NCBI GenBank assembly: GCA_007119615.1
Contig: SKPH01000001.1
Span: forward strand, 1 to 59,120
Source: Syntrophomonadaceae bacterium
GTDB taxonomy: Bacteria; Bacillota; Dethiobacteria; DTU022
Length of the DNA stretch: 59,120 nt
Reading direction: 5' to 3'
Made by a program: the position numbers and the translations under genes. Positions 10,507-57,039 of the stretch are shown here, in pieces (positions within the stretch are counted from its first letter, which is position 1; each line of letters begins with the position of its first letter). The notes below the pieces were generated by a model, which had not been told where the DNA came from, made no database searches, and saw only the letters and a program-made list of their open reading frames with translations.

Positions 10507-10522
10507 CCGAAGTGTTGGTTCC
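10507..10522 (+). promoter_or_regulatory. partial copy ('box 1' only) of the conserved catabolic-operon upstream element
   Basis: CCGAAGTGTTGGTTCC compared with CCGAAGGTGTTAGCTCC in copies A and B. It lies in the AT-rich divergent region, 361 nt upstream of the thiolase ATG. Confidence 0.3.
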
Positions 10523-15135: not shown

Positions 15136-15293
15136 TTGTTGGTTGATGATTACTGAAAGAGGTCCTGCCGCTATAGGTGCACTATTTCGGCATGGCCTCT
15201 TCTTTGTTGCCCAATTATAATGGATCAATCGGGCCGGCAACTTATCCAACTGCTTCATTAGCTATTAATATTGCCATCTGCGGGCGGATTCAT

Positions 15294-15353
15294 TCTAAAG
15301 GATTAATCCATATTTTACTCTTTTTTCACCTTGCTTCCATGCTTTTAAGTGAT
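15294..15353 (+). promoter_or_regulatory. copy C (diverged) of the conserved upstream element, 101 nt before bamB
   Basis: TTTTACTCTTTTTTCACCTTGCTTCCATGCTTTTAAGTGAT aligns with copy A, TTTCACTCTTTTTAACCTTGATTCCATGCTTTTTAGGGAT. The 5' box is weak (TCTAAAGGATTAATCC). Confidence 0.5.
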
Positions 15354-15454
15354 TCTTTTATTAAGAAATTCCTGTAAACTGGTAAAGTAGAGGTAGTCTG
15401 ACAGGAGCAGGCAGCAATGTTTGAGGTTAATTTATAGCTAAGAGGTGTTGAAAA

Positions 15455-17446
15455 ATGAGATACGCAGAGACAGGTTATAATTTAGAAATTGACTTATCCA
15501 GCGGAAATATTGAAAAGGTAGAAACTGATCCGGCAATTACAGCGCTCCACCTGGGAGGTCTGGGCACTAACGCCAAGATTTTATGGGACACTGTTCCTCC
15601 TGAAGCCGATCCCTTTTCTCCCGAAAACCGGCTGATATTCGGTACCGGTCTCTTATGCGGCACACCAGCTGTAGGAGCGAATCGAACAATTGTTACCACC
15701 TACTCTCCTCAGACTCTGTTAATGGCATATTCAATGATGGGAGGATTCTGGGCTCCTGAGTTAAAGCATGCCGGATATGACAAGGTAATTTTGAGCGGGA
15801 AGTCCCCCAGCCTGGTTTATTTGTGGATAAACAACGACAAAGTGGAGCTACGTGATGCTTCACATCTGCAGGGCAAAGGAACGGTCGAAACTGAAGCGCT
15901 GATCCGGGAAGAACTGCAGGAACCGAACGCTCAGGTGATGTCAATTGGCCTGGCAGGAGAAAACAGGATTTATTATTCTTCAATTGAGCACAGCAGGTCC
16001 AGTGCCAGCAGAGGCGGCATGGGAGCTGTTATGGGAGACAAAAAAGTTAAAGCGATAGCGGTTCGGGGGACAAAGGATCTCAACATTGCCCGGCCGGTCG
16101 AGTTTATTGAACACTGTAATGATGTTCTCAATTATATTCAATGGCGGGCCGATAATCCAGTTCAACATGTCCCGCCCATTTTAGCCGGACTTGGTTCGCC
16201 GCAGGAGATGGCGATACACGATGAACAGTGGCATACCACGGCTTTTTCCTGGGGAAATGCCCGCTATAGGAGAAAAGACTTTTGGACCGAGGAAGTTGAA
16301 AAAGAATGGTCCGAGATTCAGGATGGAGCGGTACAGCGGTTGATCAGCTGCTACAATTGTCCGATGAAGTGCGGCGCAATAATTGCCTATCCTACCCTGG
16401 AACTCTCTAAATATATGATGAAATGCTATTCAAAGTTAACTTATGTGATGGGGGCAATGGCTGATAACCTGGAATTCGGTTTCAGAATTGCCGGTTTAGC
16501 CCAGGGTTACGGTGTGGATGCCTACACTGCGCCTCAGGTTATGGCTTTTGCCGTAGAACTTTATGAGCAGGGGATATTAACTGATCAGGATCTGCCTGAG
16601 TTTCCGCCTGATAATGAGGGAAGGTTTTTCTATCTTCTCGAAAAAATTGTCCGGCGGGAGGGAATTGGCGATGTCCTGGCCAATGGAGTTTACTGGGCTG
16701 CGCGTGAGATAGGCAATGGAGCGGAAGCCTACGACAGCAATACCATTAAAAAACATGAGCAGATCCCGATTAAACTTGGGATGCTGAATCCTATATTTTT
16801 CCTGATGCTTTCCACCGGTGAGAAGATCAATATTACCCAGATTGAAGGGCAGCTGCCCCAGGCGCCTTTCCCGGACAGAGAGGACAGGGAGGAGTTTGTA
16901 AAGGACTGGATTCAGGCCCCCAGTGATACAATTAAAGAATTTTTCCTGAATTGGGAACTGCGCGGGGATAATGCATTTCCTTTTTATCCCGATTTCCAAA
17001 CAGCCTGTGAACTGGTTGAGTGGCAGGAGACAATGCATTATATCGATGATTCCACCGGAATATGCGCAGGGTTATCATCTTTTCCGATCAAACCTCCGTA
17101 TCATATCAATAATCTGCCCGGTTTAATTTCGGCGGCCACCGGCCTTGATATTGACAGGGATGAACTTTGGAACAAAATAGTCAGAAGAAACCGCAGCCTG
17201 ATGAGAGCTATTAATTCAAGAAGAGGCTTGAGAAGAAGTGATGACAAACCTCCGCAGGATCATTGGAAAAAAAGATTTCCCGAGCATGAAGCCAAACTTT
17301 TAGATGAATATTATAAATTTAAAGGGTGGAATAATGATGGTATTCCCACGAAAGAGTCTCTGGAAGAATTAGGTCTTGGGTATGTTGGTGAAGACTTAGA
17401 AAAGCGAGGGATTTATAATAATGGGCAAAGTGAAGAAAAAAGTTAA
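15455..17446 (+). CDS. bamB: class II benzoyl-CoA reductase active-site subunit BamB (tungsten bis-pterin, aldehyde:ferredoxin-oxidoreductase family)
   Basis: A 663-aa AOR-family protein with the [4Fe-4S] motif CYNCPMKCG. It is the first gene of a cluster colinear with the described bamBCDEFGHI organisation. Confidence 0.85.
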   Translation: MRYAETGYNLEIDLSSGNIEKVETDPAITALHLGGLGTNAKILWDTVPPEADPFSPENRLIFGTGLLCGTPAVGANRTIVTTYSPQTLLMAYSMMGGFWAPELKHAGYDKVILSGKSPSLVYLWINNDKVELRDASHLQGKGTVETEALIREELQEPNAQVMSIGLAGENRIYYSSIEHSRSSASRGGMGAVMGDKKVKAIAVRGTKDLNIARPVEFIEHCNDVLNYIQWRADNPVQHVPPILAGLGSPQEMAIHDEQWHTTAFSWGNARYRRKDFWTEEVEKEWSEIQDGAVQRLISCYNCPMKCGAIIAYPTLELSKYMMKCYSKLTYVMGAMADNLEFGFRIAGLAQGYGVDAYTAPQVMAFAVELYEQGILTDQDLPEFPPDNEGRFFYLLEKIVRREGIGDVLANGVYWAAREIGNGAEAYDSNTIKKHEQIPIKLGMLNPIFFLMLSTGEKINITQIEGQLPQAPFPDREDREEFVKDWIQAPSDTIKEFFLNWELRGDNAFPFYPDFQTACELVEWQETMHYIDDSTGICAGLSSFPIKPPYHINNLPGLISAATGLDIDRDELWNKIVRRNRSLMRAINSRRGLRRSDDKPPQDHWKKRFPEHEAKLLDEYYKFKGWNNDGIPTKESLEELGLGYVGEDLEKRGIYNNGQSEEKS

Positions 17447-17960
17447 GGTAATCAGGATTGATACTGATAAATGTAACGGCTGCCGGGCCTGTGAGATGAT
17501 CTGTTCGGCTTTCCACGCTTCGGATAAATATAGTGTAATTAATCCATCCAGGTCCCGGATCAGGATGATTCGCGAGCCGATGCGCGACGTCTACCTCCCC
17601 GTATACGCCGGCGAGTATACTGCAGCCGAATGTATGGGTAGAGATAAATATGTTGTCGATGGAAAAGAATATGAGGAATGCGCATTTTGCAGAGCATCCT
17701 GTCCATCCAGAGATGCTTTTAAGGAACCTGATTCCGGACTTCCGCTAAAATGTGATATGTGCGAAGATGATCCTGAACAGGAAGAGCCGCTGTGTGTTAA
17801 GTGGTGTCTGGCTGATGCCCTGACTTATGAAGAGCGGGAAGAAGAGGTTGAGGAAGAAGTGATCCTCGAAGAGATGGAAACTGGATTAAAATCACTGATA
17901 GATAAATACGGACTTGATGACTTAATTGATAGCATTGCCCGAATGTCACGGAAGGAATAA
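17421..17960 (+). CDS. bamC: BamC, poly-[4Fe-4S] ferredoxin-like subunit
   Basis: CNGCRACEMIC, CAFCRASCP and CDMCED...CVKWC cluster motifs. The gene overlaps the end of bamB by 26 nt. RBS GAGGGA lies 9 nt upstream. Confidence 0.8.
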   Translation: MGKVKKKVKVIRIDTDKCNGCRACEMICSAFHASDKYSVINPSRSRIRMIREPMRDVYLPVYAGEYTAAECMGRDKYVVDGKEYEECAFCRASCPSRDAFKEPDSGLPLKCDMCEDDPEQEEPLCVKWCLADALTYEEREEEVEEEVILEEMETGLKSLIDKYGLDDLIDSIARMSRKE

Positions 17961-17993
17961 ATATCTTAAGTTGAAAGAAGGGATTACAAACTC

Positions 17994-19145
17994 GTGGATA
18001 TTGAAACCCCGATCAATGAAGTCATAGAAGAAATAAAAGAGTTCGGTGGAGACGCCGTTAAGTTCTGCTACCAATGCGGAAAATGCGATACTGTATGTCC
18101 CTGGAATAAGGTAACAAATTTTAGCATTCGGAAGTTGATCCGGGAGGCTACATTTGGAATACCGGAAGTAGAGCTTGAGGAAGTCTGGCGCTGCACTACC
18201 TGTGGGAAGTGCCCCCAGGAATGCCCAAGGGACGTCAGGCAGATTGACGACGTGGTAGCTATGCGCAGAATTGCCACGGAATACGGAGTTTCTTCAACTC
18301 TTCTCAAGCCTGTCCGCTCAGCGAGCGCATGCCTGGCTGCGGAAGGCAACCCTCTTGTCCAGGAACGCTCTAAAAGGGCGGATTGGACGGAGGGCCTGGA
18401 TGTAAAACCTTTTACGGAGGAAATGGAAATTCTTTATTTTCCCTGCTGCTACGTCTGTTACGATAAGAGATTAAAAGAAGTTGCCACTGCTACAGTCAGG
18501 ATATTGAATAAAGCCGGGGTTGAATTCGGAATCCTGGGAACTCAGGAGAACTGTTGCGGGGAAAGTATCCGCAAAACAGGCAATGAGGAAATATTTAAGA
18601 GCCTGGCCAGGGAAAATATTAAAACTTTTATTGACAACGGGGTCAAGAAAATCCTGGTTTCTTCTCCACATTGCTATCACACGCTAAAAAATGAATACCC
18701 CGAATTCAAAGCGAACTTTGAAGTGGTTCATATTACCCAGTATTTACACGAGCTCATTAGTGAGGGCAGACTTCAGGTCAGTAAAGGTTACGAGAAGAAA
18801 GTTACTTACCATGACCCCTGTTACCTGGGGCGGCATAATGGAATTTACGATGAGCCGCGGGAAGTTTTAGGTAAGATCCCCGGCCTGGAATTAAGCGAGA
18901 TGGCTGAAATACGGGAAGAGGGCCTCTGCTGTGGAATGGGCGGAGGCAGGATCTGGATTGATACCAAAATGGATGAACGTTTCTCCAATATAAGGGTTGA
19001 AGAAGCGGTTGCAATGGGGGCTGAAGTGCTGGTAACTTCCTGCCCGTACTGTATCGATGCTCTTGAAGAGAGCAGATCGGGCCTGAACTATGAGGATGCA
19101 ATCCAGGTTAAAGATATAACGGAGATCCTTCAGGAAGTTCTTTAG
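17994..19145 (+). CDS. bamD: BamD, HdrD-like subunit (two 4Fe-4S motifs plus two CCG domains)
   Basis: CYQCGKCDTVCP and CTTCGKCPQECP. CCG motifs at ENCCGES and GLCCGMGGG, with CPYC near the C-terminus. Confidence 0.85.
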   Translation: MDIETPINEVIEEIKEFGGDAVKFCYQCGKCDTVCPWNKVTNFSIRKLIREATFGIPEVELEEVWRCTTCGKCPQECPRDVRQIDDVVAMRRIATEYGVSSTLLKPVRSASACLAAEGNPLVQERSKRADWTEGLDVKPFTEEMEILYFPCCYVCYDKRLKEVATATVRILNKAGVEFGILGTQENCCGESIRKTGNEEIFKSLARENIKTFIDNGVKKILVSSPHCYHTLKNEYPEFKANFEVVHITQYLHELISEGRLQVSKGYEKKVTYHDPCYLGRHNGIYDEPREVLGKIPGLELSEMAEIREEGLCCGMGGGRIWIDTKMDERFSNIRVEEAVAMGAEVLVTSCPYCIDALEESRSGLNYEDAIQVKDITEILQEVL

Positions 19146-19215
19146 AGTCTGAAGAAATTAGTTTGCTGAAATTGAACAGAGGGTTCGAACATAAAACCTG
19201 ATGAGGTGATCGTAA

Positions 19216-22200
19216 GTGGAAAATGAACTGGAAATAAACAGAGCACAACTTCTCAAAAGCCTTGCTGGAGATAATTTTGGGGATGTCATGGTTGTAGGTG
19301 GAGGAGTAAGCGGTATCCAGGCTTCATTGGATCTTGCCACCGCCGGTTTTAAAGTTTATCTGGTTGACAGTGCACCCGCGATTGGGGGCCACATGGCTCA
19401 GCTGGATAAAACTTTTCCAACTAATGATTGCTCGATGTGAATACTCTCACCCAAACTGGTCGAGGTCGACCGGCACACCAACATCGAGGTCCTTTCATAT
19501 ACTGAAGTTGATAGCGTGGAAGGAGAAGCGGGGAACTTCAGGGTAGGTCTGAGGAGAAAGCCCAGATATGTATTGGAGGACAAATGTACGGGCTGTACTG
19601 TCTGTGTAGAATACTGTCCTGCAAAATATCCTGATAAATTTAATCAGGATTTATCGAAGAATAAAGCAATCCATATCTACTACTCTCAGGCGATCCCTCT
19701 GATCACTTATATTGACGAAAGCTGCCTCTATTTGAAAGAGAAGAAATGCCGTATTTGTGAGGCGGTATGTAAGAATGAGGCGATAGATTTTAGCCAGACC
19801 GAGAAGAAGATGGAAATAAAAGTCGGGGCGGTTGTTCTTGCTCCGGGGTATGAACCCTTCGACCCCGGCGCGAGAGAGGATTACGGCTACGGAAAATTTA
19901 AGAATGTGATTACCAGCATGGATTACGAACGGCTGACCGATTCAACCGGTCCATACGAAGGCCAGGTTCTTCGTCCATCAGATTTGAAGCATCCCCAAAA
20001 AGTAGCCTGGATTCAGTGTGTCGGTTCCCGCCAGGTTAATCCACCGGGCGGCAACAGCTACTGTTCCTCGGTATGCTGTACTTATACACAGAAACAGGTC
20101 ATCTTGACCAAAGAGCACAGTCCTGATGCTGAATGCACGGTTTTCCATAATGATATCCGTTCTTATGGGAAAGATTTCGAGCGCTTTTACCAGAGGGCTG
20201 AAGATCTTCCCGGGGTGCAATTTATCAGGAGTTATGTATCAGTGGTAAAAGAAGATCCTGAAACTAAAAATGTTACACTCAAGTATGCTACTAACGACGA
20301 TGGCGTCAGGGAAGAAGAATTCGACCTGGTTGTATTGTCGGTCGGATTGAACCCTCCCGCTGATTTTAAGGGCCTGGCAGATAAATTTGGCATCGAACTC
20401 AATGAGCATGGATTTTGTAAAACCGATCCCGGTAATCCGATGCAGACATCCCGCCCAGGGTTGCTGATTAGCGGAGCATTCCAGGGACCCGTGGATATCC
20501 CCGAATCGGTTGTGTCCGCAAGCGGGGCCGGTTCTCAGTGTGGTGAGCTACTCAATTACAGGCGGGGCGATCTTTCTACAGAGAGGATATACCCGCCGGA
20601 AAGGGACGTTTCTCTGGAGGAACCCAGGATCGGTGTTTTCGTGTGCCACTGCGGTGCTAATATCGGCAGGGTGGTTGATGTCCCTTCCACTGTTGATTAT
20701 TGCTTAACGCTGCCTAATGTTGTCTACGCCCAGGAACAGCTCTTCTCCTGCGCAACCAACTCTGCCGAGGAGATAACTGAAAAGATCAAGGAACAAGGAC
20801 TTAACCGGGTAATTGTCGCCGCCTGCTCCCCCAGGACTCTGGAAATGTTATTCAGGGACACCCTTCGCCAGGCGGGACTGAATCAATATTATTATGAAAT
20901 GGCCAATATCAGGGAACATTGTTCCTGGGTCCACCCCAAAGAGAAGGATGAAGCAACTCAAAAATCTAAAGATATTATCCGCATGGCTGTTGCCAGGACC
21001 CGATTCCTGGAACCGTTAACAGAAATTGATCTGCCGGTCGACAAGCGGGCCTTAGTGGTCGGTGGCGGCCTTGCCGGTATGACCTGTGCGCTATCCATTG
21101 CTGCGCAGGGCCATGAAGTTTACCTGGTGGAAAAGGATCCCGAACTGGGAGGTACGGCGCGAAAAATTCATGATACCCTGGATGGAACGGATGTCCAGGC
21201 TTATTTGCGCGAAGTCATCGGGAAGATCTATAAAAACCCCCTGGTTCATGTTTATACCGATGCGAATATTACCGAAAATACAGGCTATATTGGAAATTTC
21301 ATAACCCGACTGAAGGTGGGCGATAGAACTGCAGAGCTTAAGCATGGAGCAACTGTTATCGCTACGGGGGCTGATATTTATACACCCACCGAGTATCTCT
21401 ATGGAGAAGATGACAGGGTTTTGACGCACCTCGAGTTGGAGGAAAAGATCGCAGAAGAAGATGAAAAAGTGATCAATTCGCAAAGCCTGGTCATGATCCA
21501 ATGTGTGGGCTGCCGGAATGAAGAAAGAAATTACTGCAGCCGGATTTGCTGTAATGAGTCTGTAAAAAATGCCCTTAAATTAAAAGAGAAAAACCCGCAG
21601 ATGGATATATATATTCTTTTCCGCGACATGAGAACTTATGGTTATAATGAGGATTATTACCGGCTGGCCTCAGAAAAAGATGTCAAATTTATTCGCTACG
21701 AGCCGGATGAAGAGCCCCTTGTGGAGGCTGCCGAGGGAGAAGATCGACCTGTCTTGAGGGTCACCCTGCCGGATTATGTTTTAGGCAAAAAGCTGGAAAT
21801 TGATGCTGATATCGTTACCCTGGCTGCGGCCGTTATTCCATCTGCAGGGACCAGGGAAATTGAGAGTATATTCAAAGTCGGTCTGAACCAGGATGGTTTC
21901 TTTAAAGAAGCTCATGTCAAATTAAGACCGGTAGAGTTTGCTGCTGAAGGTATTTATCTTTGCGGGCTGGCGCATTATCCGAAACTTATCTCGGAGACGA
22001 TCAGCCAGGCCTACGGAGCAGCAGGCCGGGTATTGACCCTGCTTTCAAACGATACCGTTACCGCTTCGGGTTCTATTTGCGAAGTGGAGGAAAATAGCTG
22101 TATCTCCTGTGGAGCATGCATCGCAGCCTGTTCCTACGGCGCTATAGAGTTTCGTGAAACTGAACTGGGGATTAAAGCTTTTGTCAACCCCGTCCTCTGC

Positions 22201-22341
22201 AAGGGAGACGGACTCTGTAACGCAATGTGCCCGACAGGTGCAATTCAACTCAAACATTTTACCGATGAAGAGCTATTGAGCCAAATTGATGCGGCAACTT
22301 CAGAAGAAGAGGTTGTTGATGAAGTTGAAACAGTGGTTTAA
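19216..22341 (+). CDS. bamE: BamE, HdrA-like FAD/FeS subunit; selenoprotein with in-frame UGA at 19438-19440
   Basis: ORFs 19216-19440 and 19516-22341 share one frame with no other stop between them. The joined sequence reads ...FPTNDCSM-U-ILSPKLVEVD..., the HdrA CSMC(I/L) site. FAD motif VVGGGVSGIQASLDLA. C-terminal 2x[4Fe-4S] motifs CISCGACIAAC and CKGDGLCNAMCP. Confidence 0.85.
19438..19473 (+). other. UGA(Sec) codon plus SECIS-like hairpin in bamE
   Basis: TGA at 19438-19440. The hairpin CTGGTCGAGGTCGACCGG (19456-19473) has a 6-7-bp stem and a G-G-U-containing apical loop. It begins 15 nt after the UGA. Confidence 0.6.
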
Positions 22342-22401
22342 GATTTTCGAATCCCCGGGCTTTAGACCGATCGGAATGATTAACTTGGGAGGTGTAAGCG
22401 G

Positions 22402-23169
22402 ATGAGTGCCGGAACAACATTTAAGCCAAAAGTTATCGGCTTTGTATGCCAGTGGTGAGGATACGGAGCTGCTGACCTGGCTGGAGTTTCCAGACTACAA
22501 TATACAACTGAAATCAGGCTTATTCGCGTCATGTGCACCGGTAGAATTGACCTCGCACATGTAATCAGGGCTTTTACAAACGGAACCGATGGTGTGTTTA
22601 TCGGTGGATGCAGATTGAATGAATGTAATTATATAACTCACGGAAATTTTTATGCTTTGAATATGGTTCTTCTTTGTAAAAAAATGATGGAACATATTGG
22701 GATAAATCCAGAGAGATTAAGGATCGAGTTCATGTCATCCGGTGAAGGGAACCTGTTTGCCGAGGTCGTCGATCATTTCGTTAAGACAGTAAAGGATATT
22801 GGTCCTCTCGGCAAAAGCGAAGGACTTGATGAAAATGGGTTAAAAGTAAATCTTGAAGCAATAACCGGTTTAATCCCCTATATCAGGCTGGTAGAAAGCG
22901 AGAGATTAAAAGGGCATTTTACTACACTGGAGGAATATCAAGAATTTTACTCCAGTGTGGAGTTTGACAGGCTATTTAAAGAGCTGATCGCAGACAAACT
23001 GGCGATCAGCAGGATTATCTTACTCTTACGGGAAAAAGCCCTCTCTACAGGAGAAATTTCTGAGGTTTTAGGTTTATCCCCCTCAGAAATATCCAAGCAC
23101 CTGAGTAACTCGGCAAAGCTTGGTTTGGTCAGGTATGATGAAAGCCGGAAACGTTTTGCTTCAGTTTAA
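22402..23169 (+). CDS. bamF: BamF, MvhD-like subunit; selenoprotein with in-frame UGA at 22456-22458; C-terminal winged-helix-like tail
   Basis: ATG 22402 follows GGGAGG and is in frame with ORF 22531-23169. It translates as MSAGTTFKPKVIGFVCQW-U-GYGAADLAGVSRLQY..., the MvhD CxWC-x-Y-x-GAD-x-AG signature with Sec in place of the second Cys. Confidence 0.8.
22456..22493 (+). other. UGA(Sec) codon plus candidate SECIS hairpin in bamF
   Basis: TGA at 22456-22458. The hairpin CTGGAGTTTCCAG (22481-22493) has a 5-bp stem and a GUU loop. It begins 22 nt after the UGA. Confidence 0.45.
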
Positions 23170-23217
23170 AGCTGAAGAGCAGGCCGCAGGGTAAAGGAGG
23201 AGCAGAGGATAAAAGTT

Positions 23218-23670
23218 ATGGATAATGCCAGAATTGATCAGATCTTGGAGAAATATAACGGCGAGGCCAGTTCACTCATTCAGGTATTGCTGGAAGTGCA
23301 GAGCGAAAACCGCTGGCTTCCCGGTCAGGCCCTGGAGAGGATCAGTGAAGGATTACAGGTACCCTTAGCCAGGATTCAGCATATTGCTACTTTCTATAAA
23401 GCATTTAGCCTGGTTCCTAAAGGACGTCATGAAATTCATATCTGCATGGGTACTGCCTGTCACGTTCGTGGCGCTCAGAATGTCCTCGATAAGGTTCAGG
23501 AACTGACCGGAATTAACCCCGGCGAAACTGACCTGGATTTGAAATTCAGCCTGGAGACCGTAAACTGCCTCGGCTGCTGTGCATTAGGGCCGGTGATGGA
23601 GATAGACGGGCAGATTCATGGAAAGATAACACCGTCTGAAACAGCGGACGCGTTGCAAAAATATGAGTGA
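23218..23670 (+). CDS. bamG: BamG, NuoE/HoxE-like [2Fe-2S] subunit
   Basis: Thioredoxin-like 2Fe-2S motif: CMGTACHVRG ... CLGCCALGP. Confidence 0.85.
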   Translation: MDNARIDQILEKYNGEASSLIQVLLEVQSENRWLPGQALERISEGLQVPLARIQHIATFYKAFSLVPKGRHEIHICMGTACHVRGAQNVLDKVQELTGINPGETDLDLKFSLETVNCLGCCALGPVMEIDGQIHGKITPSETADALQKYE

Positions 23671-23692
23671 AGGAAGGTTGTGAAGTAAGACC

Positions 23693-25615
23693 ATGGCACG
23701 GATAAAATCATCTGCCGAACTGGAAGAGCTCAGAGAGGGTATCTTGTCGCAAAGAGACCCTGATAAACGGACTATTACACTCTGTTCCGGGTCTGCTTGC
23801 CACGCAACCGGCAGCAAATTGGTTGCCGCCAGCATTGAAGAAGAGATAAAAAAACAGGGTTTAACCGATCAGGTTAATATCAGGAAAACCGGCTGCCATG
23901 GATTCTGCGAGAGAGGCCCGATTATTGTTATCCAGCCGGACGAAATATGCTACCTGGAAATAAAGCCTGAAGATGTTCCTGAGATTGTCTCCGAAACGAT
24001 CAGAGATCAGAAGATCATAGAGAGGCTGCTATATACCGATCCCAAAACAGATCAGGAAATTATCCATGAATCTGAAATTCCATTCTACAAGAATCAGCAG
24101 CGCCTCCTTTTCGGCGCCAACATTAAAATCGATCCCAAGAGCATTGATGACTACCTCGCGATAGGAGGTTATTCCGCGTTATCCAAAGTGCTGTTTCAGA
24201 TGACACCGGAAGAGGTCCTGGAAGAAGTAAAAAAATCCAACCTCAGGGGAAGAGGAGGCGGAGGTTTTCCGGCAGGCGCAAAATGGGAGGGATCCCGCAA
24301 TGACCCCGAGGAGACAAAGTATGTGATCGTCAATGCGGATGAAGGAGATCCCGGGGCGTATATGGATCGGAGCCTGCTCGAAGGAAACCCACACTCCGTC
24401 CTTGAAGGACTGGCTATCGGAGCTTATACAATCGGGGCCAGAGAAGGCTATATTTACGTTCGGCAGGAATACCCGCTGGCAGTTGAAAATATTAACCTGG
24501 CAATCAGCCAGGCTGAAGAATATGGTCTCCTGGGGGAGAATATCCTCGGCTCAGGATTTGATTTCACAGTTACAGTACACCAGGGCGCCGGCGCATTTGT
24601 CTGTGGTGAATCGAGTGCCTTGATGACGGCTTTGGAAGGCAGGGCGGGAGAGCCGAGGCCAAAGTATATTCGTTCCAACATCAAGGGGCTGTGGGAAAAA
24701 CCGACGGTGTTGAATAATGTTGAGACCTGGGCTAATGTTCCGCTGATCATTAATAATGGCGCTGACTGGTTTACCCGGTACGGAACAGAAACAAGCAAGG
24801 GCACAAAAATTTTCTCCCTGGTGGGTAAAATTAATAATACCGGTCTTGTGGAAGTGCCGATGGGCATGACCTTAAGAGATATTATCTATAAAATCGGCGG
24901 TGGAATACACAGGGACAAGGAGTTCAAAGCCGTTCAAACCGGAGGGCCCTCCGGGGGGTGCCTTCCTGAAAACTTGTTGGATCTGGAAGTTGGTTTTGAC
25001 GAACTGACTCAGGCCGGCTCAATGATGGGGTCCGGCGGGATGATTGTAATGGATGAAGATACCTGTATGGTTGACGTTGCCAGGTACTTTCTGGACTTTC
25101 TTGCCGACGAATCGTGCGGCAAATGTGTTCCCTGCCGTGAAGGTGTTAAACAGATGCTTCATATTTTGACGGATATCACCCGGGGGAAGGGAAAAGAAGA
25201 CGATATTGAGCTTTTGGAGGAGTTAGCCGAGGTAGCCAAAGAATCTGCACTCTGCGCCCTGGGCCAGACTGCTCCCAATCCATTTCTAAGTACGTTGAAA
25301 TATTTTAAAGCTGAGTACGAGGCGCACATTATGGAAAAGAGATGCCCTGCTCTATATTGTAAAGAACTGATCGAATATTATATTGATCCGGAGAAGTGCC
25401 GGGCCTGTATGATTTGTCTTAAGCAGTGTCCATCAGATGCGATTATAGGTGAAAAGAAAAAGGTGCATATAATTGATCAAGAGAAGTGCACAAAGTGTAA
25501 TACATGTTTCGAAGTCTGCCCTTCCCGCTTTGGTGCAGTGAAGAAGATCTCCGGCGAACCGGTTCCGCCTCCAATTCCCGAAGAAGAAAGAATTATAGCC
25601 AGGGGGAGCAAATGA
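23693..25615 (+). CDS. bamH: BamH, NuoF/HoxF-like NAD(P)H- and FMN-binding FeS subunit
   Basis: GRGGGGFPAGAKW, ESCGKCVPCREG (N3 cluster) and C-terminal ferredoxin motifs CRACMICLKQCP and CTKCNTCFEVCP. Confidence 0.85.
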   Translation: MARIKSSAELEELREGILSQRDPDKRTITLCSGSACHATGSKLVAASIEEEIKKQGLTDQVNIRKTGCHGFCERGPIIVIQPDEICYLEIKPEDVPEIVSETIRDQKIIERLLYTDPKTDQEIIHESEIPFYKNQQRLLFGANIKIDPKSIDDYLAIGGYSALSKVLFQMTPEEVLEEVKKSNLRGRGGGGFPAGAKWEGSRNDPEETKYVIVNADEGDPGAYMDRSLLEGNPHSVLEGLAIGAYTIGAREGYIYVRQEYPLAVENINLAISQAEEYGLLGENILGSGFDFTVTVHQGAGAFVCGESSALMTALEGRAGEPRPKYIRSNIKGLWEKPTVLNNVETWANVPLIINNGADWFTRYGTETSKGTKIFSLVGKINNTGLVEVPMGMTLRDIIYKIGGGIHRDKEFKAVQTGGPSGGCLPENLLDLEVGFDELTQAGSMMGSGGMIVMDEDTCMVDVARYFLDFLADESCGKCVPCREGVKQMLHILTDITRGKGKEDDIELLEELAEVAKESALCALGQTAPNPFLSTLKYFKAEYEAHIMEKRCPALYCKELIEYYIDPEKCRACMICLKQCPSDAIIGEKKKVHIIDQEKCTKCNTCFEVCPSRFGAVKKISGEPVPPPIPEEERIIARGSK

Positions 25616-26229
25616 AGATGAGTAAAATTACTTTGAATATTGACGGAACAGAGATTGAAGCAAGCGAAGGCATGACCATACTGGAGGCAGCTCAGAGCGT
25701 GGGAATAGATATTCCGACCCTTTGTCACCATGAAAAATTGGAGCCTTACGGTGGTTGCCGGATATGCACGGTGGAAGCGGAGGTAAGAGGGCGGACAAAA
25801 CTCGTCGCAGCCTGCGTATATCCGGTAGAAAAGAATCTGACGGTAAAAACAAGGTCTGATAAAGTTGATAGAATTCGCAAGATGGTCCTACAGCTTTTGC
25901 TTTCACATGCTCCGGATTCCGAACAATTGGTGGATTTGGCTAAAGAGTACGGTGCAGACAAAGATCGTTTTGAGAAAGAGGCTTCATTTTGCATTCATTG
26001 CGGTTTATGTGTCCGGTACTGCGCCGAGGTGAAAAAGAAGAACGCTGTTGGATTTATTAACAGGGGTTCAAAACGGGAGATAAACTTTGTTCCCGAGATA
26101 GCTGCCAGGGAGTGCTGGAACTGCAAAGAATGTTTCCCGCTCTGCCCTACAGCGGCGCTCCAGGCAGCTTACGTTTTTACAGAATCCCTGGTAAATTCCT
26201 CACCCCCCTATGAAACTGATTCAGAATGA
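25612..26229 (+). CDS. bamI: BamI, NuoG N-terminal-like [2Fe-2S]/[4Fe-4S] subunit
   Basis: The start is reassigned to ATG 25612, which forms an ATGA overlap with the bamH stop. The track start at 25504 lies inside bamH. Motifs: CHHEKLEPYGGCRICTVE, CIHCGLCVRYC and CKECFPLCP. Confidence 0.8.
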   Translation: MKMSKITLNIDGTEIEASEGMTILEAAQSVGIDIPTLCHHEKLEPYGGCRICTVEAEVRGRTKLVAACVYPVEKNLTVKTRSDKVDRIRKMVLQLLLSHAPDSEQLVDLAKEYGADKDRFEKEASFCIHCGLCVRYCAEVKKKNAVGFINRGSKREINFVPEIAARECWNCKECFPLCPTAALQAAYVFTESLVNSSPPYETDSE

Positions 26230-33606: not shown

Positions 33607-33912
33607 TTTATTACCTCCTTGCAAAATTTTTTTCTAACGACTTGAAAGATTTCGACATCGTAATAATTTATTCCTGCACGAGTTGCGATAAGTGTTTAGA
33701 ACAGAAGGCCAGACACTTGAAAATATAGAATTTAGTTAAAATTATATGGATATAATAAAATTAATTTAAAAATAATGAACGCTATATTGAATATAGAAAT
33801 AATTTATGATAAACTGAATTAATATCATTTTGAAATGTTTCCTGATTTTCCAAAAGCTCTATAATTTGGGAATGTTTTATTTGACACAGCTTATCCAGCT
33901 TAAATATGAAAA

Positions 33913-33966
33913 GAAGGTGGTAACTCCTAAAATTATTCTGGTGGAACGGGAAAAGGTAATGCTAGC
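33913..33966 (+). promoter_or_regulatory. copy E (partial) of the conserved upstream element, about 50 nt before dctP
   Basis: GAAGGTGGTAACTCC...TTCTGGTGGAA...AAGGTAATGCTAGC compared with copy D, GCAGGTGGTAACCC...TTCTGATGAAA...TAGGTGATAGC. Confidence 0.35.
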
Positions 33967-37209: not shown

Positions 37210-37944
37210 TTATTCATGATCGGAATCTCTATGGCCTGTCTTGCCGAAATCCGTATTCTCAATTACGAATAAGCTCTCCGAGCTGTTCCGGCTTAATTTC
37301 ATTGCCAGGGAAATTGCCTGGGTTCTGTTTTTAACCTGAAGCTTTTGATAAATATTGCGCAGGTGGGTCTTGACCGTGTCGACTGCCAGATTGGTAGCCG
37401 CGGATATTTCTTTATTGGTCAACCCTTTGACTAATTGTCTGAGTATTTCCTGTTCCCTCGGAGTCAGCTCAACCCGCTTTTCTTCTTTATCCAGAGGTTT
37501 TATCTCGGTAAGTTTTTTGCTCAGCCGTGTATAGTCGTTAACGATCTGGCGAAAAACAGACTGGTCTATAATAGTTTCTCCACTATGAACTCTTTTGATT
37601 GTGTCTATAAGATTTTGTCTGCTGACATGTTTGAGGATATAGCCGGAAGCCCCGGACTGCAGGGCCAATCGGATCGATTCGGTATCTTCAAAAATTGTTA
37701 AGAAGATCACTTTGATTTCCGGTTTTTGGGCCAGGATCTGCTTTGCAGTTTCAATCCCGTTGACACCCTCCATATTGATATCCATTAAAATGATATCAGG
37801 TTCGGCAGAATGAGCTTTCTCAAGAGCTTCTGAGCTATTCCCTGCGCTGGCAACAATGGTAATTTCTTCGATGTTTTCAAGCATATTGGACAACCCTTCC
37901 CGAACCATGGGATGATCATCGACTATGAGAATCTTTATGGCCAC
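37210..37944 (-). CDS. NarL/LuxR-family response regulator (REC plus HTH_LuxR)
   Basis: ILIVDDHPMVREGL ... DIILMDINMEGVNGIE. The HTH is LTPREQEILRQLVKGLTNKEISAATNLAVDTVKTHLRNIYQKLQV. A tail of about 35 aa follows the HTH. Confidence 0.9.
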   Translation of the reverse strand: MAIKILIVDDHPMVREGLSNMLENIEEITIVASAGNSSEALEKAHSAEPDIILMDINMEGVNGIETAKQILAQKPEIKVIFLTIFEDTESIRLALQSGASGYILKHVSRQNLIDTIKRVHSGETIIDQSVFRQIVNDYTRLSKKLTEIKPLDKEEKRVELTPREQEILRQLVKGLTNKEISAATNLAVDTVKTHLRNIYQKLQVKNRTQAISLAMKLSRNSSESLFVIENTDFGKTGHRDSDHE

Positions 37945-37968
37945 GATAGGACTCCTTTCCGCATAATT

Positions 37969-39645
37969 TTATATCGGTATGGTTACGCTGATCCGTGTTC
38001 CTTCACCGGGTCGGGAATCAATTCTGCAGGCGCCTCCCAACAGCAGGGCTCGTTCCTGAATGCTGGCCAGGCCCAGGCGATTGTGAAGTTGCGGAGTATC
38101 GGCAGGTTCCGTATTTATTCCGGACCCGTTGTCTTCCACGGAAAGATTCACCTCATGGTCCTGAATATCAAGGCAGACTTTGACTTTGGTCGCGCTGGAG
38201 TGCTTTATTACATTTGTCAGCGCTTCCTGCAGGATCCTGAATAAAGCAACTTCTATATTCGAAGCCAATCTCTGATTTTCCCCATTAACCTTAAGTTCGA
38301 TAGGAAGATTATTCTTTTCGGAAATGTCAAAAACGTGAGTTTCAACAGCTGGAATCAACCCGTAATTGTCCAGAATAATCGGGCGCAGGTCGTACAGAAT
38401 ACGCCTTACTTCCTGGATTTGCTCACTTAATACATTCGTGATATCGGTGATTTCAGAATGCCATTTTTGCGATTCGGCCTTTTCGGCAGATGAGATTCGC
38501 TGTAGTCGGTACCAGATGGCTATCAGGGATTGGATTATGCCGTCATGCAGATCGGAAGCCAAACGCTTGCGCTCATCTTCCTGTGCTGTAGTCAGTTTAT
38601 CCACCAGCTGGTGCAGCAGTTGTTCTTTTTGGCCAAGTTTTTCGATTAAAGCCGCATTTTCCATGGCAACCGCGGTGGCGCGGGCAATGGCGAAAATAAT
38701 TTCTATTTCCTCGCTGTCGAAGCCGCCTGACTCCAGAGGCCGATCCAGCTGCATAATGCCGATGGTTTTTCCTTTACTAAGAATTGGGACCAGCAAAACC
38801 CAGCTGTATGCAAAATCCTCTATAATCTCCCTGGGGAGCATCCTGGATATGTTCTCCGGGGTTATCACTACCGGTTGCTCTGTTTTTATAGCCCGTTTGA
38901 TACCCGGGAAAAGTCTTGCGCCTTTTAAGGCTTTAAATTTTTTTTTCAATTCGGGATCATAACTTCCCACAGCGACTGCCGGAATCAGGGTCTGATCTAT
39001 CTCGTTCAGTAGGTATATACAGTTTTTTGCTGAAAAGAGGTCTGCTGTTAGCTGAGTAACGACATGAAGAACCTGTCTTAGATCTAAAGTGGAGCTGATG
39101 GTGTTAACTAACTCCAGCCAGACGGCAAGCTTTCTCAGGTGGCGATCTTTTTGTCTCCGGAAGAGTGACTCCTGGATGATGTCGGCCATATGGCGGCCCA
39201 AAGAGACTGCTTTGGCCAGCATATACTGCCCGCTCCGGTAGTCGGTGTTGAAGATACCGATTTCCATCGTACCGACAGGATCTCCGGCCTTTAAAAGGAC
39301 CGGAAAAGTGGTAGAAATGACTGGGGAAAGGGGCTCCAGCAACTTTTTCTTCTGCAGGTTTTCTTCATCAGACAGGTAATCTTTTAATTGAGAACATCTT
39401 TCCAGATGAGCGGTACCACCGGTATCCGCTTCTTCCCCGTTTTTTGAAGCATGCCAGCATACCACATCTTTGTCATCTCGAACCAGCATCAGGCTGGCCT
39501 GCCCGAAATCAAAATAGTCAACAGAAGTTTGCAGGGTATTTTGCAGGGAGGTTTTTACCTGCTTAATTGTTGTAAAGCCGGAGCTAACACGGCAGATCAA
39601 AATCAGTTCCGGCCTGGCCTTTGGGTCAGGTATGTGCTTTAGCAA
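37969..39645 (-). CDS. cytoplasmic sensor histidine kinase: GAF-like N-terminal sensory region, then HisKA_3 and HATPase_c
   Basis: No TM segments. H-box EDERKRLASDLHDGIIQSL, N-box EALTNVIKHS and G-box VEDNGSGI. TTG start after GGGTGG. Confidence 0.85.
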   Translation of the reverse strand: MLKHIPDPKARPELILICRVSSGFTTIKQVKTSLQNTLQTSVDYFDFGQASLMLVRDDKDVVCWHASKNGEEADTGGTAHLERCSQLKDYLSDEENLQKKKLLEPLSPVISTTFPVLLKAGDPVGTMEIGIFNTDYRSGQYMLAKAVSLGRHMADIIQESLFRRQKDRHLRKLAVWLELVNTISSTLDLRQVLHVVTQLTADLFSAKNCIYLLNEIDQTLIPAVAVGSYDPELKKKFKALKGARLFPGIKRAIKTEQPVVITPENISRMLPREIIEDFAYSWVLLVPILSKGKTIGIMQLDRPLESGGFDSEEIEIIFAIARATAVAMENAALIEKLGQKEQLLHQLVDKLTTAQEDERKRLASDLHDGIIQSLIAIWYRLQRISSAEKAESQKWHSEITDITNVLSEQIQEVRRILYDLRPIILDNYGLIPAVETHVFDISEKNNLPIELKVNGENQRLASNIEVALFRILQEALTNVIKHSSATKVKVCLDIQDHEVNLSVEDNGSGINTEPADTPQLHNRLGLASIQERALLLGGACRIDSRPGEGTRISVTIPI

Positions 39646-39695: not shown

Positions 39696-39724
39696 ATTTT
39701 ACCAGTTTCTTTCAGAAACGTCAA
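39696..39724 (-). promoter_or_regulatory. candidate sigma-70 promoter of the kinase/regulator operon
   Basis: On the minus strand: TTGACG (39724-39719), a 17-nt spacer, then TAAAAT (39701-39696). It lies about 50 nt upstream of the TTG start at 39645. Confidence 0.45.
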
Positions 39725-39749
39725 CTTTGGGCATTACGAAAGTGCTCAT

Positions 39750-39808
39750 CCGAAGGTGTTAGCTCCCATTTCACTCTTTTTAACCTTGATTCCATGCTTT
39801 TTAGGGAT
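39750..39808 (+). promoter_or_regulatory. copy A of the conserved ~60-nt upstream element
   Basis: CCGAAGGTGTTAGCTCCCATTTCACTCTTTTTAACCTTGATTCCATGCTTTTTAGGGAT. It lies 192 nt upstream of the ATG at 40001 and is near-identical to copy B. Confidence 0.8.
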
Positions 39809-40000
39809 TTTATTATTGTCTGTCTTTGTTTAATATTTAGTTAATGGACTTGCACCCGGAGATAATTCTTTCAGCAAAATCCGGAGTGATGAAGTGGGTG
39901 CTTTTAAAGCCGGGAGTTTGGAGCAGGTTAAGTTATGTTTGCGTTTCAACCTGCATTTTTTGTCTTTCGAAAATGATCAAGCTGCCGGAGGGTGGGTGCG

Positions 40001-52840: not shown

Positions 52841-54412
52841 TTATGCACCGTACCTGTCACGCAGAACCCGGTGCAGGGTTTTGCCGGTTGCCGTAAGAGG
52901 CATTTCTTCTTCCTTGATAAAATCTATCGATTTAGGCCGTTTATAGCCGGCAATTTTATCCTTACAGAATGCAGCTATATCGCCGGCAAGTTCTTCACTT
53001 GGCTGAAATCCGTTATTGAGGACGATCACGGCTTTTACTGCTTCTCCCCACTTATCATCGGGGATCCCGATTACAGCAACATTCTTAACTGCAGGGTGAG
53101 CGGATACAGTATTTTCGACCTCGGAAGGATAAACATTTTCCCCGCCGGTGATAATCATATTTTGCTTTCGATCAACCAGGTAATAGTATCCTTCTTCGTC
53201 TCTCAGGGCCATATCTCCGGCAGAGCACCAGTTTCCGTGAAACGCTGCACTGGTTTTCTCCGGATCTTTCCAGTATTCTTTAAAAATGATTGGAGAACGG
53301 CTGTAAAGTTCCCCTACCTCCCCTTCGGGCACCTCATTCTTATTTTCATCGAGGAGTTTAATTCGATCTGTGCCATATATTTCCCGCCCAATCGAACCAA
53401 GCTTGGCAAATTGTTCTTCAGGCCTCAGATAGGTAACCAGGCCGGCTTCTGTTGACCCGTAGGCTTCCCAGAGTTCCGCTGACTTGAAATAATCCATAAT
53501 GGCCAGTTTTAGTTCTTTTCTGGCCGGGGCTGAAGAGATCAGCAGCTGCCTGATGCAGCTGACGTCGTATTTCTGTTTTATTTCGTCAGGCAGGCTGAGG
53601 ATCATAATATAGTGAGTCGGGACCAGGGAAGTATAGGTGATTTTGTATTCGGAGATAGTTTTTAGCAGATCTTCAGGGTCAAACGTAACCATGCTGTAGA
53701 CCATTGCCGGCGCACCCAGGATTGTGTAGGCGAAAGAGTAGTAGATCGAATTCACGTGGCACATCGGCATTACCAGCAGTATTTTATCATCAGTCCTGAC
53801 TCCCATATTCATATTGCTGAGCAGGTACTGGGCGGTATAACTTTCATGGGTTCTGACTGCGCCTTTCGGTTTGCCGGTAGTCCCGGAGGTATACATTATC
53901 GTCCAGGTATCAGATGCGTCAACCGGCACATCAGGCTCCCCGGGGGGGCTCTGGTCGATAAATTTTTCATAATCGATGAAACCTTCAGGTTCTTCTCCAT
54001 CTCCTATGGAGATAAAGTTATCTGCGGGGATGGTTTGTAAATTGTCACGTATACTGTTGACTCCTTCTGTAAAGGGGGCTTCAACTATGAAAGCTTTACA
54101 TTCTGCATGATTGACAATGTATTCATATTCCAGGGGTGTGAGGCGGAACATGATTGGTACGGCTACCTGACCGCCCTTGGCGCAGGCTGCGTAGATGTCC
54201 ATCCACTCTACCCTGTTGTAAGCAAGCACGGCGACCCGATCCCCATATCCTACGCCCATACTTTGCAGTCCATTGGCAATGCGGCATGCTCTATCGTTCC
54301 ATTCTCTGAATGTAAAACTCCTGGTTTTATCCTGGCAGCCCAATTGATCAGGATATTTTAATGCATTTGTTTTTAGGGCGGTTCCAATGTGCATCCACTT
54401 GCTGGTATTCAT
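52841..54412 (-). CDS. AMP-forming acyl-/aryl-CoA ligase (candidate benzoate-CoA ligase type)
   Basis: YTSGTTGKPKG, YGSTEAG, GDMALRDEEGYYYLVDRK and GGENVYPSEVE. Confidence 0.85.
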   Translation of the reverse strand: MNTSKWMHIGTALKTNALKYPDQLGCQDKTRSFTFREWNDRACRIANGLQSMGVGYGDRVAVLAYNRVEWMDIYAACAKGGQVAVPIMFRLTPLEYEYIVNHAECKAFIVEAPFTEGVNSIRDNLQTIPADNFISIGDGEEPEGFIDYEKFIDQSPPGEPDVPVDASDTWTIMYTSGTTGKPKGAVRTHESYTAQYLLSNMNMGVRTDDKILLVMPMCHVNSIYYSFAYTILGAPAMVYSMVTFDPEDLLKTISEYKITYTSLVPTHYIMILSLPDEIKQKYDVSCIRQLLISSAPARKELKLAIMDYFKSAELWEAYGSTEAGLVTYLRPEEQFAKLGSIGREIYGTDRIKLLDENKNEVPEGEVGELYSRSPIIFKEYWKDPEKTSAAFHGNWCSAGDMALRDEEGYYYLVDRKQNMIITGGENVYPSEVENTVSAHPAVKNVAVIGIPDDKWGEAVKAVIVLNNGFQPSEELAGDIAAFCKDKIAGYKRPKSIDFIKEEEMPLTATGKTLHRVLRDRYGA

Positions 54413-54524
54413 ATTTGTCCAGCTCCTGATTTAGATTTATAATGCCGGGAGTATTAATAGCTTCTATTTGACATCATTTTTATTCTTCATAATTTTGTAA
54501 TTACCTTCTCAAAATTGGTTTTAA

Positions 54525-54582
54525 TGCAGGTGGTAACCCTTTTATCACTCTTCTGATGAAAAAATCCCTCTTTTAGGTGATA
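54525..54582 (+). promoter_or_regulatory. copy D of the conserved upstream element, 94 nt before the second hbd-like gene
   Basis: TGCAGGTGGTAACCCTTTTATCACTCTTCTGATGAAAAAATCCCTCTTTTAGGTGATA. About 20 of its first 28 positions match copy B by eye, and the 3' box is CTCTTTTAGGTGAT. Confidence 0.55.
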
Positions 54583-54676
54583 GCAAAATTTAATCATATT
54601 TTATAATATTAAGTCAATGATGAAAAATCTTTATCTTCTGCGTGATCATTTTTTAATTTGAAGGGGGTAATAAACG

Positions 54677-55528
54677 GTGGCTATTTCAAAAATCGGCATA
54701 TTAGGAGCCGGGGCAATGGGCAGCGGTATAGCTCAGGTTGCCGCCCAGGCCGGGTACGAGGTTGTCCTTAGTGATACGGAGGAGTCGATCGTTGATCGGG
54801 CTTATTCCAAGATTGCGGCATTTATGGATAAAAGTATTGAAAAAGGCCGGTTAACAGCAGAGCAGAAGGATGAAAGTTTATCTTTAATTAACCGTACTAC
54901 CGGTATCTCTGCTTTTGAAGATGCGGATCTTGTTATTGAAGCAATCATTGAAGATCTTGAACTAAAGAAGAACGCCTTCAGCGAACTGGAGGAAGTTTGT
55001 AAGCCGGAAGCAATCTTTGCTTCCAATACATCTTCCATGTCAATTACCGTGCTGGCAGGCGCAACTAAGAGACCGGAACAATTTGCAGGAATGCATTTTT
55101 TCAACCCACCGGCACTGATGAAATTAGTGGAGATCATCAGGGGTTACTACTCCAGCGACGCGACAATCGGGACGCTGGATGCCGTGGCAAAAAAAATGGG
55201 CAAAGTAACTGTAGAGGTAAAGAAAGATTCTCCCGGTTTTGTAGTTAACCGGATCCTGATCGCCCAGTTTGCTGAAGCGATCCGCCTGTTGGAGGAAGGG
55301 GTTGCCACACCGGAAGATATCGATACGGCGATTAAAACAGGTCTGAATTATCCGATGGGACCTTTTGAACTGCAGGACTTTACCGGAGTGGATATCGCTT
55401 ATTTTGTGATGAATTATTTTTATGACGAATTCAAGGATCCGCGCTGGAATCCGCCGCAGGCGATTAAAGCTCTGATCCGGGCGGGGAGGCTGGGTAAGAA
55501 AAGCGGTGCAGGCTGGTATGACCACTAG
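54677..55528 (+). CDS. 3-hydroxyacyl-CoA dehydrogenase (second Hbd paralogue)
   Basis: GAGAMGSGIAQ, FFNPPALMKLVEI and PMGPFELQDFTGVDI. GTG start after GAAGGGGG. Confidence 0.85.
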   Translation: MAISKIGILGAGAMGSGIAQVAAQAGYEVVLSDTEESIVDRAYSKIAAFMDKSIEKGRLTAEQKDESLSLINRTTGISAFEDADLVIEAIIEDLELKKNAFSELEEVCKPEAIFASNTSSMSITVLAGATKRPEQFAGMHFFNPPALMKLVEIIRGYYSSDATIGTLDAVAKKMGKVTVEVKKDSPGFVVNRILIAQFAEAIRLLEEGVATPEDIDTAIKTGLNYPMGPFELQDFTGVDIAYFVMNYFYDEFKDPRWNPPQAIKALIRAGRLGKKSGAGWYDH

Positions 55529-55587
55529 ATCCGGATTTTATCTGCCGGGGATGATCTTGTTTCACCCGAAGGAGGATTAATATAACG

Positions 55588-56883: not shown

Positions 56884-56979
56884 AATTTGTTTCGAATCTC
56901 CCGGTTATCTTCGATCTGTACGCCGGGGAACGCGGTCGTGATTTCTGCCAACCGCCTTCATGAATACCAGGGTGTTCAA

Positions 56980-57039
56980 CCGAAGGTGTTAGCTCTGTTT
57001 TCACCCTTTATTACTCTCGATTCCATGCTTTTAAGGGAT
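56980..57039 (+). promoter_or_regulatory. copy B of the conserved ~60-nt upstream element
   Basis: CCGAAGGTGTTAGCTCTGTTTTCACCCTTTATTACTCTCGATTCCATGCTTTTAAGGGAT. It lies 186 nt upstream of the ATG at 57226. Confidence 0.8.

Follow-up and report, generated by a model that had tools for sequence, protein, structure and literature searches.

The stretch of DNA analysed here (the window; 59,120 nt) is the whole of contig C38 in a 1.06-Mb metagenome-assembled genome (MAG) of a Syntrophomonadaceae bacterium, which is about 70% complete. Several of its operons are preceded by copies of a repeated intergenic element on the + strand. Copy A heads a peripheral (aryl-acid) operon with methyltransferase, short-chain dehydrogenase/reductase (SDR), and thiolase-like genes, and copy B heads a ChsH2-like gene and oah, which encodes a ring-cleavage hydrolase of the bamA type (584 bits against TIGR03200 of NCBIfam). 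Copy C precedes the bamB-I operon for ring reduction, and copy D precedes hbd2 and the gene of a PaaK-like aryl-CoA ligase. A two-component system is encoded on the opposite strand beside copy A. A preliminary description, in which A and B served as reference copies, had interpreted C and D, together with matches before the TRAP transporter gene dctP (E) and possibly before a thiolase operon (F), as diverged copies of the same element and as the shared signature of a regulon that links transport, ring reduction, ring cleavage, and beta-oxidation. Such a signature is supported for copies A to D, which would join the peripheral aryl-acid operon (A), ring reduction by bamB-I (C), ring cleavage by oah (B), and the operon of hbd2 and the PaaK-like ligase (D) in one regulon. 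The transport and beta-oxidation operons behind E and F are not supported as members.

The element family, represented by alignment A1 and model R1, spans Dethiobacteria and Desulfotomaculia. Among 61 related genomes (labelled G001 etc.; G001 is a sister genome from the same genus), model R1 found 39 matches of at least 29 bits, the threshold for a strong copy, in 16 genomes; the next-best matches reached at most 17 bits, which sets the upper limit of the noise band. Strong copies in these relatives precede three kinds of operon, namely bamB, an operon divergent from the two-component system (about 14 genomes), and the oah operon (about 8 genomes). In the genome itself, a hidden Markov model (HMM) trained on 25 copies of the family, from which C, D, and the counterpart of C in G001 had been left out, recovered copy A with 63.0 bits (E = 1.4e-17), copy B with 59.1 bits (E = 2.3e-16), and copy C with 55.7 bits (E = 2.5e-15; model positions 2-73 in nhmmer), and the best site other than A to D had 7.3 bits (E = 3.4). 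Box 3, the most downstream of the conserved boxes (TTCCATGCTTTTAAGKGAT), matched three times in the window with up to three mismatches (copies A, B, and C), compared with 0.04 matches expected; when it was extended by two bases (GATTCC...GAT) at the same stringency, these three were the only matches in the 1.06-Mb assembly. The box-3 pattern is present two to four times per genome in 19 of the 61 related genomes, and a reversed control pattern gave two matches in total. Searches of the approximately 70% complete assembly for the right half of box 3 followed at a set distance by a -10 hexamer, and for box 2 combined with box 3, gave no copies beyond A, B, and C.

The aligned matches reveal a module far longer than the boxes first recognised, with a consensus of 75 nt (nGTGTTCATCCnAAAGnGTTAACCCTTAATTCACTCTTTTTTAACCTTGCTTCCATGCTTTTAAGnGATTTTTTT). 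In the consensus of 27 copies, box 1 is a palindrome of the GGGTTAACCC type (also written AAAGGGTTAACCCTT or AAAGnGTTAACCCTTAA), which is preceded 14 nt upstream by a degenerate repeat of itself (GTGTTCATCC). Copies A and B carry a lineage-specific variant of this palindrome (GGTGTTAGCTC, the GAAGGTGTTAGCTC box). The 19 nt of box 3 have hardly changed between two classes. In the position of a -10 region stands a TAnnnT hexamer, whose distance from the GAT of box 3 is exactly 22 nt in 31 of 35 non-redundant copies and 21 nt in three others; the A at position 24 downstream of box 3 is invariant. The element contains no -35 hexamer, and a run of T occupies the -35 position. As read from these alignments, the element is a promoter that lacks a -35 hexamer and carries upstream dyad sites, and it is best interpreted as a module of roughly 95 bp, comprising promoter and activator site, that heads the operons for anaerobic degradation of aromatic compounds in these Gram-positive bacteria. 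RNAalifold predicted no base pairs in 27 copies, and Rfam had no matches in the window; the element therefore acts as DNA. The predicted 5' untranslated regions measure about 150 nt in the operons of A and B (39837-39991 and 57068-57225) and about 65 nt in those of C and D.

Other readings of the same bases were tried and rejected. The -35 candidates TTGCTT and TTCACT have no acceptable -10 hexamer at 17 nt, and the fixed TAnnnT at +22 fits better. A reverse-strand micro-open reading frame starting from ATGGAA inside box 3 is put out of frame in 8 of 27 copies by a 1-nt indel at alignment column 39, within the T-run, and copies of the B and C type have no minus-strand gene that it could serve. 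A sigma-54 reading of box 3, with ATGCTT as the -12 element, fails on both strands for want of a GG at 12 nt upstream, and an AAA+ domain is missing from the regulator; likewise, neither strand of copies A to D contains a -24/-12 motif (TGGCAC-N5-TTGCW, or GG-N10-GC in register).

Copy C reads as first described and ends 101 nt before the ATG of bamB at 15455. It had been ranked among the weaker copies; its membership is upheld and its weakness is not, because it is full-length and has a canonical box 1 (AAAGGATTAATCC at 15296-15313; dyad GGATTAATCC). Its score on model R1 is 68.5 bits, and with a box-1-only matrix built from other genera it ranks first in the genome (19.5 bits, with 0.2 positions expected by chance). 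Copy C looks unlike A and B because it is they that carry the lineage-specific variant of the palindrome. In G001, which is syntenic with the contig and has about 76% nucleotide identity to it, the block that matches 15284-15397 of the window is almost unchanged, and the flanking intergenic DNA has diverged. The element precedes orthologues of bamB in 12 genomes of the order, including the present one, and in four genomes of Desulfotomaculia (Peptococcaceae BRH_c8a, a Desulfotomaculum MAG, Desulfoscipio geothermicus, and Sporotomaculum syntrophicum FB), and thus lies upstream of bamB in at least 16 genomes from two classes of Bacillota. Within the predicted -10 region, CCTGTAAACT is positionally homologous to CCTGTAAAGT of other bamB copies. 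Judged from its sequence, copy C is the bamB promoter and a full member of the family.

The bamB promoter and gene show further peculiarities. Two tandem -10-like hexamers, TAAACT and TAAAGT, lie 8 nt apart, and both are kept in G001; the bamB copy in G059 has a single -10 region, to which the second hexamer with its flank (GGTAAAGTAGAGGTA) is nearly identical. The bamB gene (15455-17446) is 84-85% identical to its counterparts in G004 and in five members of another family (G041, G047, G054, G055, and G057) and only 73% identical to bamB of the same-genus G001, which hints at lateral exchange or paralogue replacement. Several bamB orthologues (G043:C3, G059:C26, G056:C11, and G038:C123) were matched with one in-frame TAA inside an otherwise full-length alignment; the TAA may reflect either misalignment around an indel or a genuine interruption.

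Copy D, too, reads as first described, ending about 95 nt before the GTG of hbd2 at 54677, and its status as a copy of the element is borne out by conservation and colinearity, not by score. Its box 3' lacks 2 nt relative to the canonical box 3. Nucleotides 54529-54620 form a clear phylogenetic footprint, kept in three genomes of two genera (including G001 and, from a different genus, G004). The variant pattern ATCACnCT...CCTCTTTTAGGTGAT occurs exactly once in each of six genomes from three genera; these are the same genomes of family f1 that carry canonical copies, and the D-type is found in no others. It always lies between the orthologue of a minus-strand AMP-ligase gene (52841-54412) and the operon of the PaaK-like ligase, which in G004, G023, and G024 follows the element directly with no hbd2 between. 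The consensus of the D-type copies is colinear with the canonical element from box 1 via box 2 and the shortened box 3 (2 nt deleted) to the -10 hexamer (z = 4.1-4.6), and none of 2000 shuffles reached its score. The TATAAT 20 nt after box 3' is present in five of the six D-type copies; the sixth (G023) has TAATAC. We accept copy D as a conserved, diverged variant in which the left half of box 1 is weak; its promoter is probably less dependent on an activator, or tuned differently. The same intergenic region holds ATTTTTATTCTTCA at 54483-54497, which is kept in three genomes and may be a promoter or operator of the divergent AMP-ligase gene.

Copies E and F also read as quoted, E ending 49 nt before the ATG of dctP at 34016, and their membership is not borne out. 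With a position weight matrix (PWM) built without copies from the own genus, E scores 14.9 bits, a value reached or exceeded at 7 positions of the genome with 6.8 expected; F scores 8.4 bits, with 147 positions at or above that score and 138 expected. Neither has a box 2 or a box 3, so that there is no box 3 from which a -10 hexamer could be measured, and neither is in the nhmmer list for the own genome even at E <= 1000. The right half of E is deleted in G001 (5 nt), and the remaining site scores -6.1 bits; the region of F is not alignable with G001, where synteny breaks, and shows no conservation there. None of the 39 strong copies in the 16 related genomes has an orthologue of dctP or of the thiolase behind it. 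By these counts, E and F are chance matches, and their links to the regulon are unsupported because the matches are at chance level. The preliminary description had allowed that its weaker copies C, E, and F might be no better than background, which is true of E and F and false for C. As a limit on annotation, neither the TRAP transporter nor the thiolase/hbd/acd/ech operon can be assigned to the regulon on sequence grounds. Upstream of dctP, the block 33806-33857 is better conserved with G001 than E and holds TGATAAACT, which resembles an extended -10 region; the actual promoter of dctP is probably this block, in which case E would lie inside the 5' untranslated region.

The candidate reader of the element is the two-component system beside copy A. 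No transmembrane segment is predicted in the kinase, and a second GAF domain in its N-terminal part is a weak match (E = 0.2). The nearest solved structures of the response regulator are VraR, NarL, and DevR (DevR 3c3w, E = 7.5e-32). Of the 61 genomes, 14 encode a full-length kinase orthologue (at least 60% identity), each of them together with the element, and the kinase is missing from every one of the 45 genomes in which the element is absent. Among 29 named loci, which range from soda-lake 'Syntrophomonadaceae' and Dethiobacter MAGs to Desulfotomaculia (including Sporotomaculum syntrophicum FB and Desulfoscipio geothermicus), 25 have the element on the opposite strand within about 100-330 nt of the kinase start. 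Four relatives (G047, G049, G054, and G055) have bamB at up to 85% identity and possess neither the kinase nor the element; the element therefore tracks the two-component system and not bamB as such. In G049 (locus L133 on G049:C80), bamB is preceded by a textbook sigma-54-type promoter (TGGCAC-N5-TTGCA; TGGCACCTTAATTGCA), and in the other three (L130-L132), which have the gene order bamHI-bamB, by a conserved inverted repeat (CCTGGCAA...TTGCCAGG).

The recognition helix of the regulator (LAVDTVKTHLRNI) is invariant while the identity of the whole protein drops to 53%, which fits a conserved operator. Because the genomes are related to one another, the association of system and element is supportive, not proof. 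Covariation between the helix and the variants of box 1 was considered and abandoned, because the invariant helix offers no variation to compare. Just upstream of copy A, the kinase has a near-consensus divergent promoter of the sigma-A type, whose CGTCAA motif is kept only in A-type copies, i.e., those facing the kinase; this suggests that the two-component system autoregulates through this promoter.

On the observed anatomy, conservation, and statistics of the module, the genes downstream of it, and its co-occurrence with the two-component system, we consider it probable that an activator-dependent sigma-A promoter module heads each operon of the benzoyl-CoA pathway and is read by the adjacent regulator of the NarL family. 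Several points weigh against this. Two genomes, G024 (96% complete) and G056, carry the element, and no kinase orthologue was found in them. Shared ancestry and joint transfer of the catabolic cluster, which probably moves as a unit, confound the co-occurrence, and the genomes are not independent. Conservation of box 3 far exceeds what is typical of a response-regulator site, and another factor could contact it instead. Finally, copy D cannot be separated from noise by score alone: it has 10.8 bits in the own genome (E = 0.27; rank 4, with only boxes 1 and 2 aligned by nhmmer) and 13 bits on model R1, inside the noise band of the 61 genomes, and on the box-1 PWM it does no better than chance (90 positions observed vs 71 expected). 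The low scores of D, and its perfect TATAAT, which might need no activator, would also suit an independent promoter of hbd2 and the ligase that is served by another regulator and resembles the element superficially. We regard this as unlikely, because the boxes and the -10 hexamer of D follow the same order with spacings within 2 nt of the canonical ones, the shuffled alignments never reached the observed score, D-type copies are confined to the six family-f1 genomes with canonical copies, and box-3 deletions of 1 nt occur in undoubted copies of Desulfotomaculia. Still less probable is that E is a genuine stand-alone box-1 operator of low affinity that ties the TRAP transporter to the regulon. 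E is intergenic, on the correct strand, and inside the cluster, and it ranks 6th of about 2.1 million positions when copies from the own genus are included in PWM training; however, the unbiased matrix puts it at chance level, and the missing boxes and properly spaced -10 hexamer, the deletion in the sister genome, the lack of strong copies before dctP in any relative, and the better-conserved promoter-like block upstream all speak against an operator.

The exceptions G024 and G056, and the near-invariance of box 3 across two classes, which is unusual for the site of a response regulator, would be explained if the element were a real shared promoter or operator under a regulator other than the adjacent NarL-type system; that system would then be a passenger of the cluster, and box 3 perhaps the site of a second dedicated or global factor. 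This explanation is improbable given the strict association of kinase and element in the 14 kinase-bearing and 45 element-less genomes, their adjacency in most loci across classes, and the joint absence of system and element from relatives that possess bamB. Moreover, the 4-4-4 palindrome suits a GerE-domain dimer and resembles the box proposed for TdiR (GGTGTTCGCACC). The least probable reading is that the element acts as an RNA (leader, riboswitch, or small RNA) or is the relic of a mobile repeat. The long untranslated stretches behind copies A and B and the repetition within a single contig would fit; however, there are neither conserved base pairs nor Rfam matches, a -10 hexamer at a fixed position follows the conserved boxes, no reverse-strand reading frame survives the indel in the T-run, and the orthologous promoter positions across two classes are a misfit with transposition.

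Table. Features of the window and layout of the element. Positions with a sign are relative to the predicted transcription start, with the TAnnnT hexamer taken as -12 to -7, and were read from 35 copies.
Feature	Position	Strand	Remarks
Copy A, reference copy	39750-39808	+	Reference copy of the preliminary description, present in the window
Copy A with -10 hexamer	39742-39836	+	TAATAT at 39831-39836; 22-nt spacing to -10 holds
Copy B, reference copy	56980-57039	+	Reference copy of the preliminary description, present in the window
Copy B with -10 hexamer	56972-57067	+	TAAGCT at 57062-57067
Copy C, full-length element	15286-15359	+	HMM, R1, box-1 PWM, conservation in G001
Parts of copy C			Upstream half-repeat GGATTCATTC; box-1 palindrome AAAGGATTAATCC; box 2 TTTACTCTT; box 3 TTCCATGCTTTTAAGTGAT
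Predicted bamB -10 region	15375-15388	+	TAAACT at 15375-15380, 21 nt after box 3; TAAAGT at 15383-15388
bamB-I operon, class II benzoyl-CoA reductase, downstream of C	15455-26229	+	Pfam AFOR_N/AFOR_C, Fer4, CCG, Pyr_redox_2, Complex1_51K
Copy D, diverged variant	54525-54581	+	Box 1' GGTGGTAACCC; box 2' TTTATCACTCTT; box 3' ATCCCTCTTTTAGGTGAT
-10 hexamer of the D promoter	54602-54607	+	Perfect TATAAT, 20 nt after box 3'
Operon of hbd2 (3-hydroxyacyl-CoA dehydrogenase) and PaaK-like aryl-CoA ligase	54677-56883	+	Pfam, NCBIfam
Proposed copy E, non-member	33913-33966	+	Box-1-like match GAAGGTGGTAACTCCTAA only
Proposed copy F, non-member	10507-10522	+	Chance match
Two-component system, proposed cognate activator	37210-39645	-	Transcribed divergently from copy A
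Kinase, soluble	37969-39645	-	GAF, HisKA_3, HATPase (Pfam)
Response regulator	37210-37944	-	REC and GerE/LuxR-HTH (Pfam)
Divergent sigma-A-type kinase promoter	39696-39724	-	TTGACG, 17 nt, TAAAAT
Degenerate palindrome	about -96		
Box-1 palindrome	centred near -82		AAAGGGTTAACCCTTAA type
Box 2	near -70		TTCACTCTT
Box 3	-53 to -35		TTCCATGCTTTTWAGNGAT; almost invariant

In the mechanism that we propose, the soluble GAF/HisKA_3 kinase would phosphorylate the NarL-family regulator encoded beside copy A upon an intracellular signal, for which benzoyl-CoA, an aromatic acyl-CoA, or an aromatic acid is a candidate. The phosphorylated regulator would bind the dyad boxes and also, in the right part of box 3, the sequence TTAAGnGAT with its likeness to a half-site of box 1, and would recruit RNA polymerase to promoters that have no -35 hexamer; it would probably also autoregulate the divergent promoter of the kinase. 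The binding protein, the signal, the transcription start, and regulation by activation are predicted components of this scheme. On an estimate that is evenly balanced, this might be the first regulatory circuit identified in Gram-positive anaerobes for the bam genes of class II benzoyl-CoA reductase, in which a soluble GAF kinase would sense an intracellular aromatic acyl-CoA, an activator of the NarL type would read a tripartite operator with a 19-nt box 3 that is almost unchanged between Dethiobacteria and Desulfotomaculia, and graded variants such as D, which pair a degraded operator with a perfect -10 hexamer, would set the induction thresholds of ligase and reductase operons at different levels. 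With the promoter module, operons for aromatic degradation could be predicted in uncultured Bacillota of soda lakes and the subsurface, and the kinase is a candidate sensor for metabolites of the benzoyl-CoA type. The cultured hosts Sporotomaculum (S. syntrophicum FB) and Desulfoscipio make the circuit directly testable.

Few regulators of the anaerobic benzoyl-CoA pathway have been described, and none of these (BadM, BamVW of Geobacter metallireducens, BgeR, and BzdR) is from a Gram-positive bacterium (PMC6678401). No description of the element or of a Gram-positive bam regulator was found in the literature searched, in which this element, although of an ordinary kind, seems to be undescribed. 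The known regulators serve the same pathway, including the bam genes in Geobacter, but BgeR, BzdR, and BadM are one-component repressors. BamW is a sigma-54-dependent regulator, whereas the regulator encoded here consists only of REC and GerE domains, and the element has no -24/-12 motif of the GG-N10-GC type; a promoter of the sigma-54 type does, however, precede bamB in G049, one of the relatives that lack the two-component system.

In kinase architecture, the nearest system is DevS/DosT-DevR (DosR) of Mycobacterium tuberculosis, which likewise combines a soluble GAF/HisKA_3 kinase with a regulator of the NarL family, although the second GAF domain of the kinase in the window is only a weak match, as noted above. 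The DosR regulon also features multiple palindromic boxes upstream of weak promoters, as well as autoregulation. However, DevS senses gas and redox state via haem and controls dormancy genes, not catabolism, and the operator of DevR/DosR differs from the present element in sequence and arm spacing. TodS/TodT and StyS/StyR of Pseudomonas provide a parallel in that their NarL-type regulators act from several upstream boxes to activate catabolic promoters of the sigma-70 type. The TodT/StyR boxes comprise palindromes and a promoter-proximal half-site. These systems differ in their hybrid double-sensor PAS kinases, the box sequence, the aerobic nature of the pathways, and the Gram-negative hosts; the TodT/StyR consensus is quoted as ATAAACN4GTTTAT (PMC5874301).

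The closest functional analogue is TdiS/TdiR (TutC1/TutB1), which controls the bss/bbs toluene operons of Azoarcus and Thauera (PMC5874301). It differs in that TdiS has PAS sensor domains whereas the kinase here has GAF, in its betaproteobacterial hosts, and in its control of a peripheral pathway rather than the central benzoyl-CoA reductase, and nothing like box 3 has been described for it. In both cases, a two-component system with a regulator of the NarL/FixJ type is encoded beside operons for anaerobic catabolism of aromatic compounds, and TdiR activates several catabolic promoters as well as its own (PMC5874301). The likeness to TdiR, which is one of domain type and box, extends to a 12-bp palindrome of 4-4-4 geometry upstream of the -35 region (PMC5874301), and of the 12 positions in the proposed TdiR box, 9 agree with GGTGTTAGCTCC in copies A and B.

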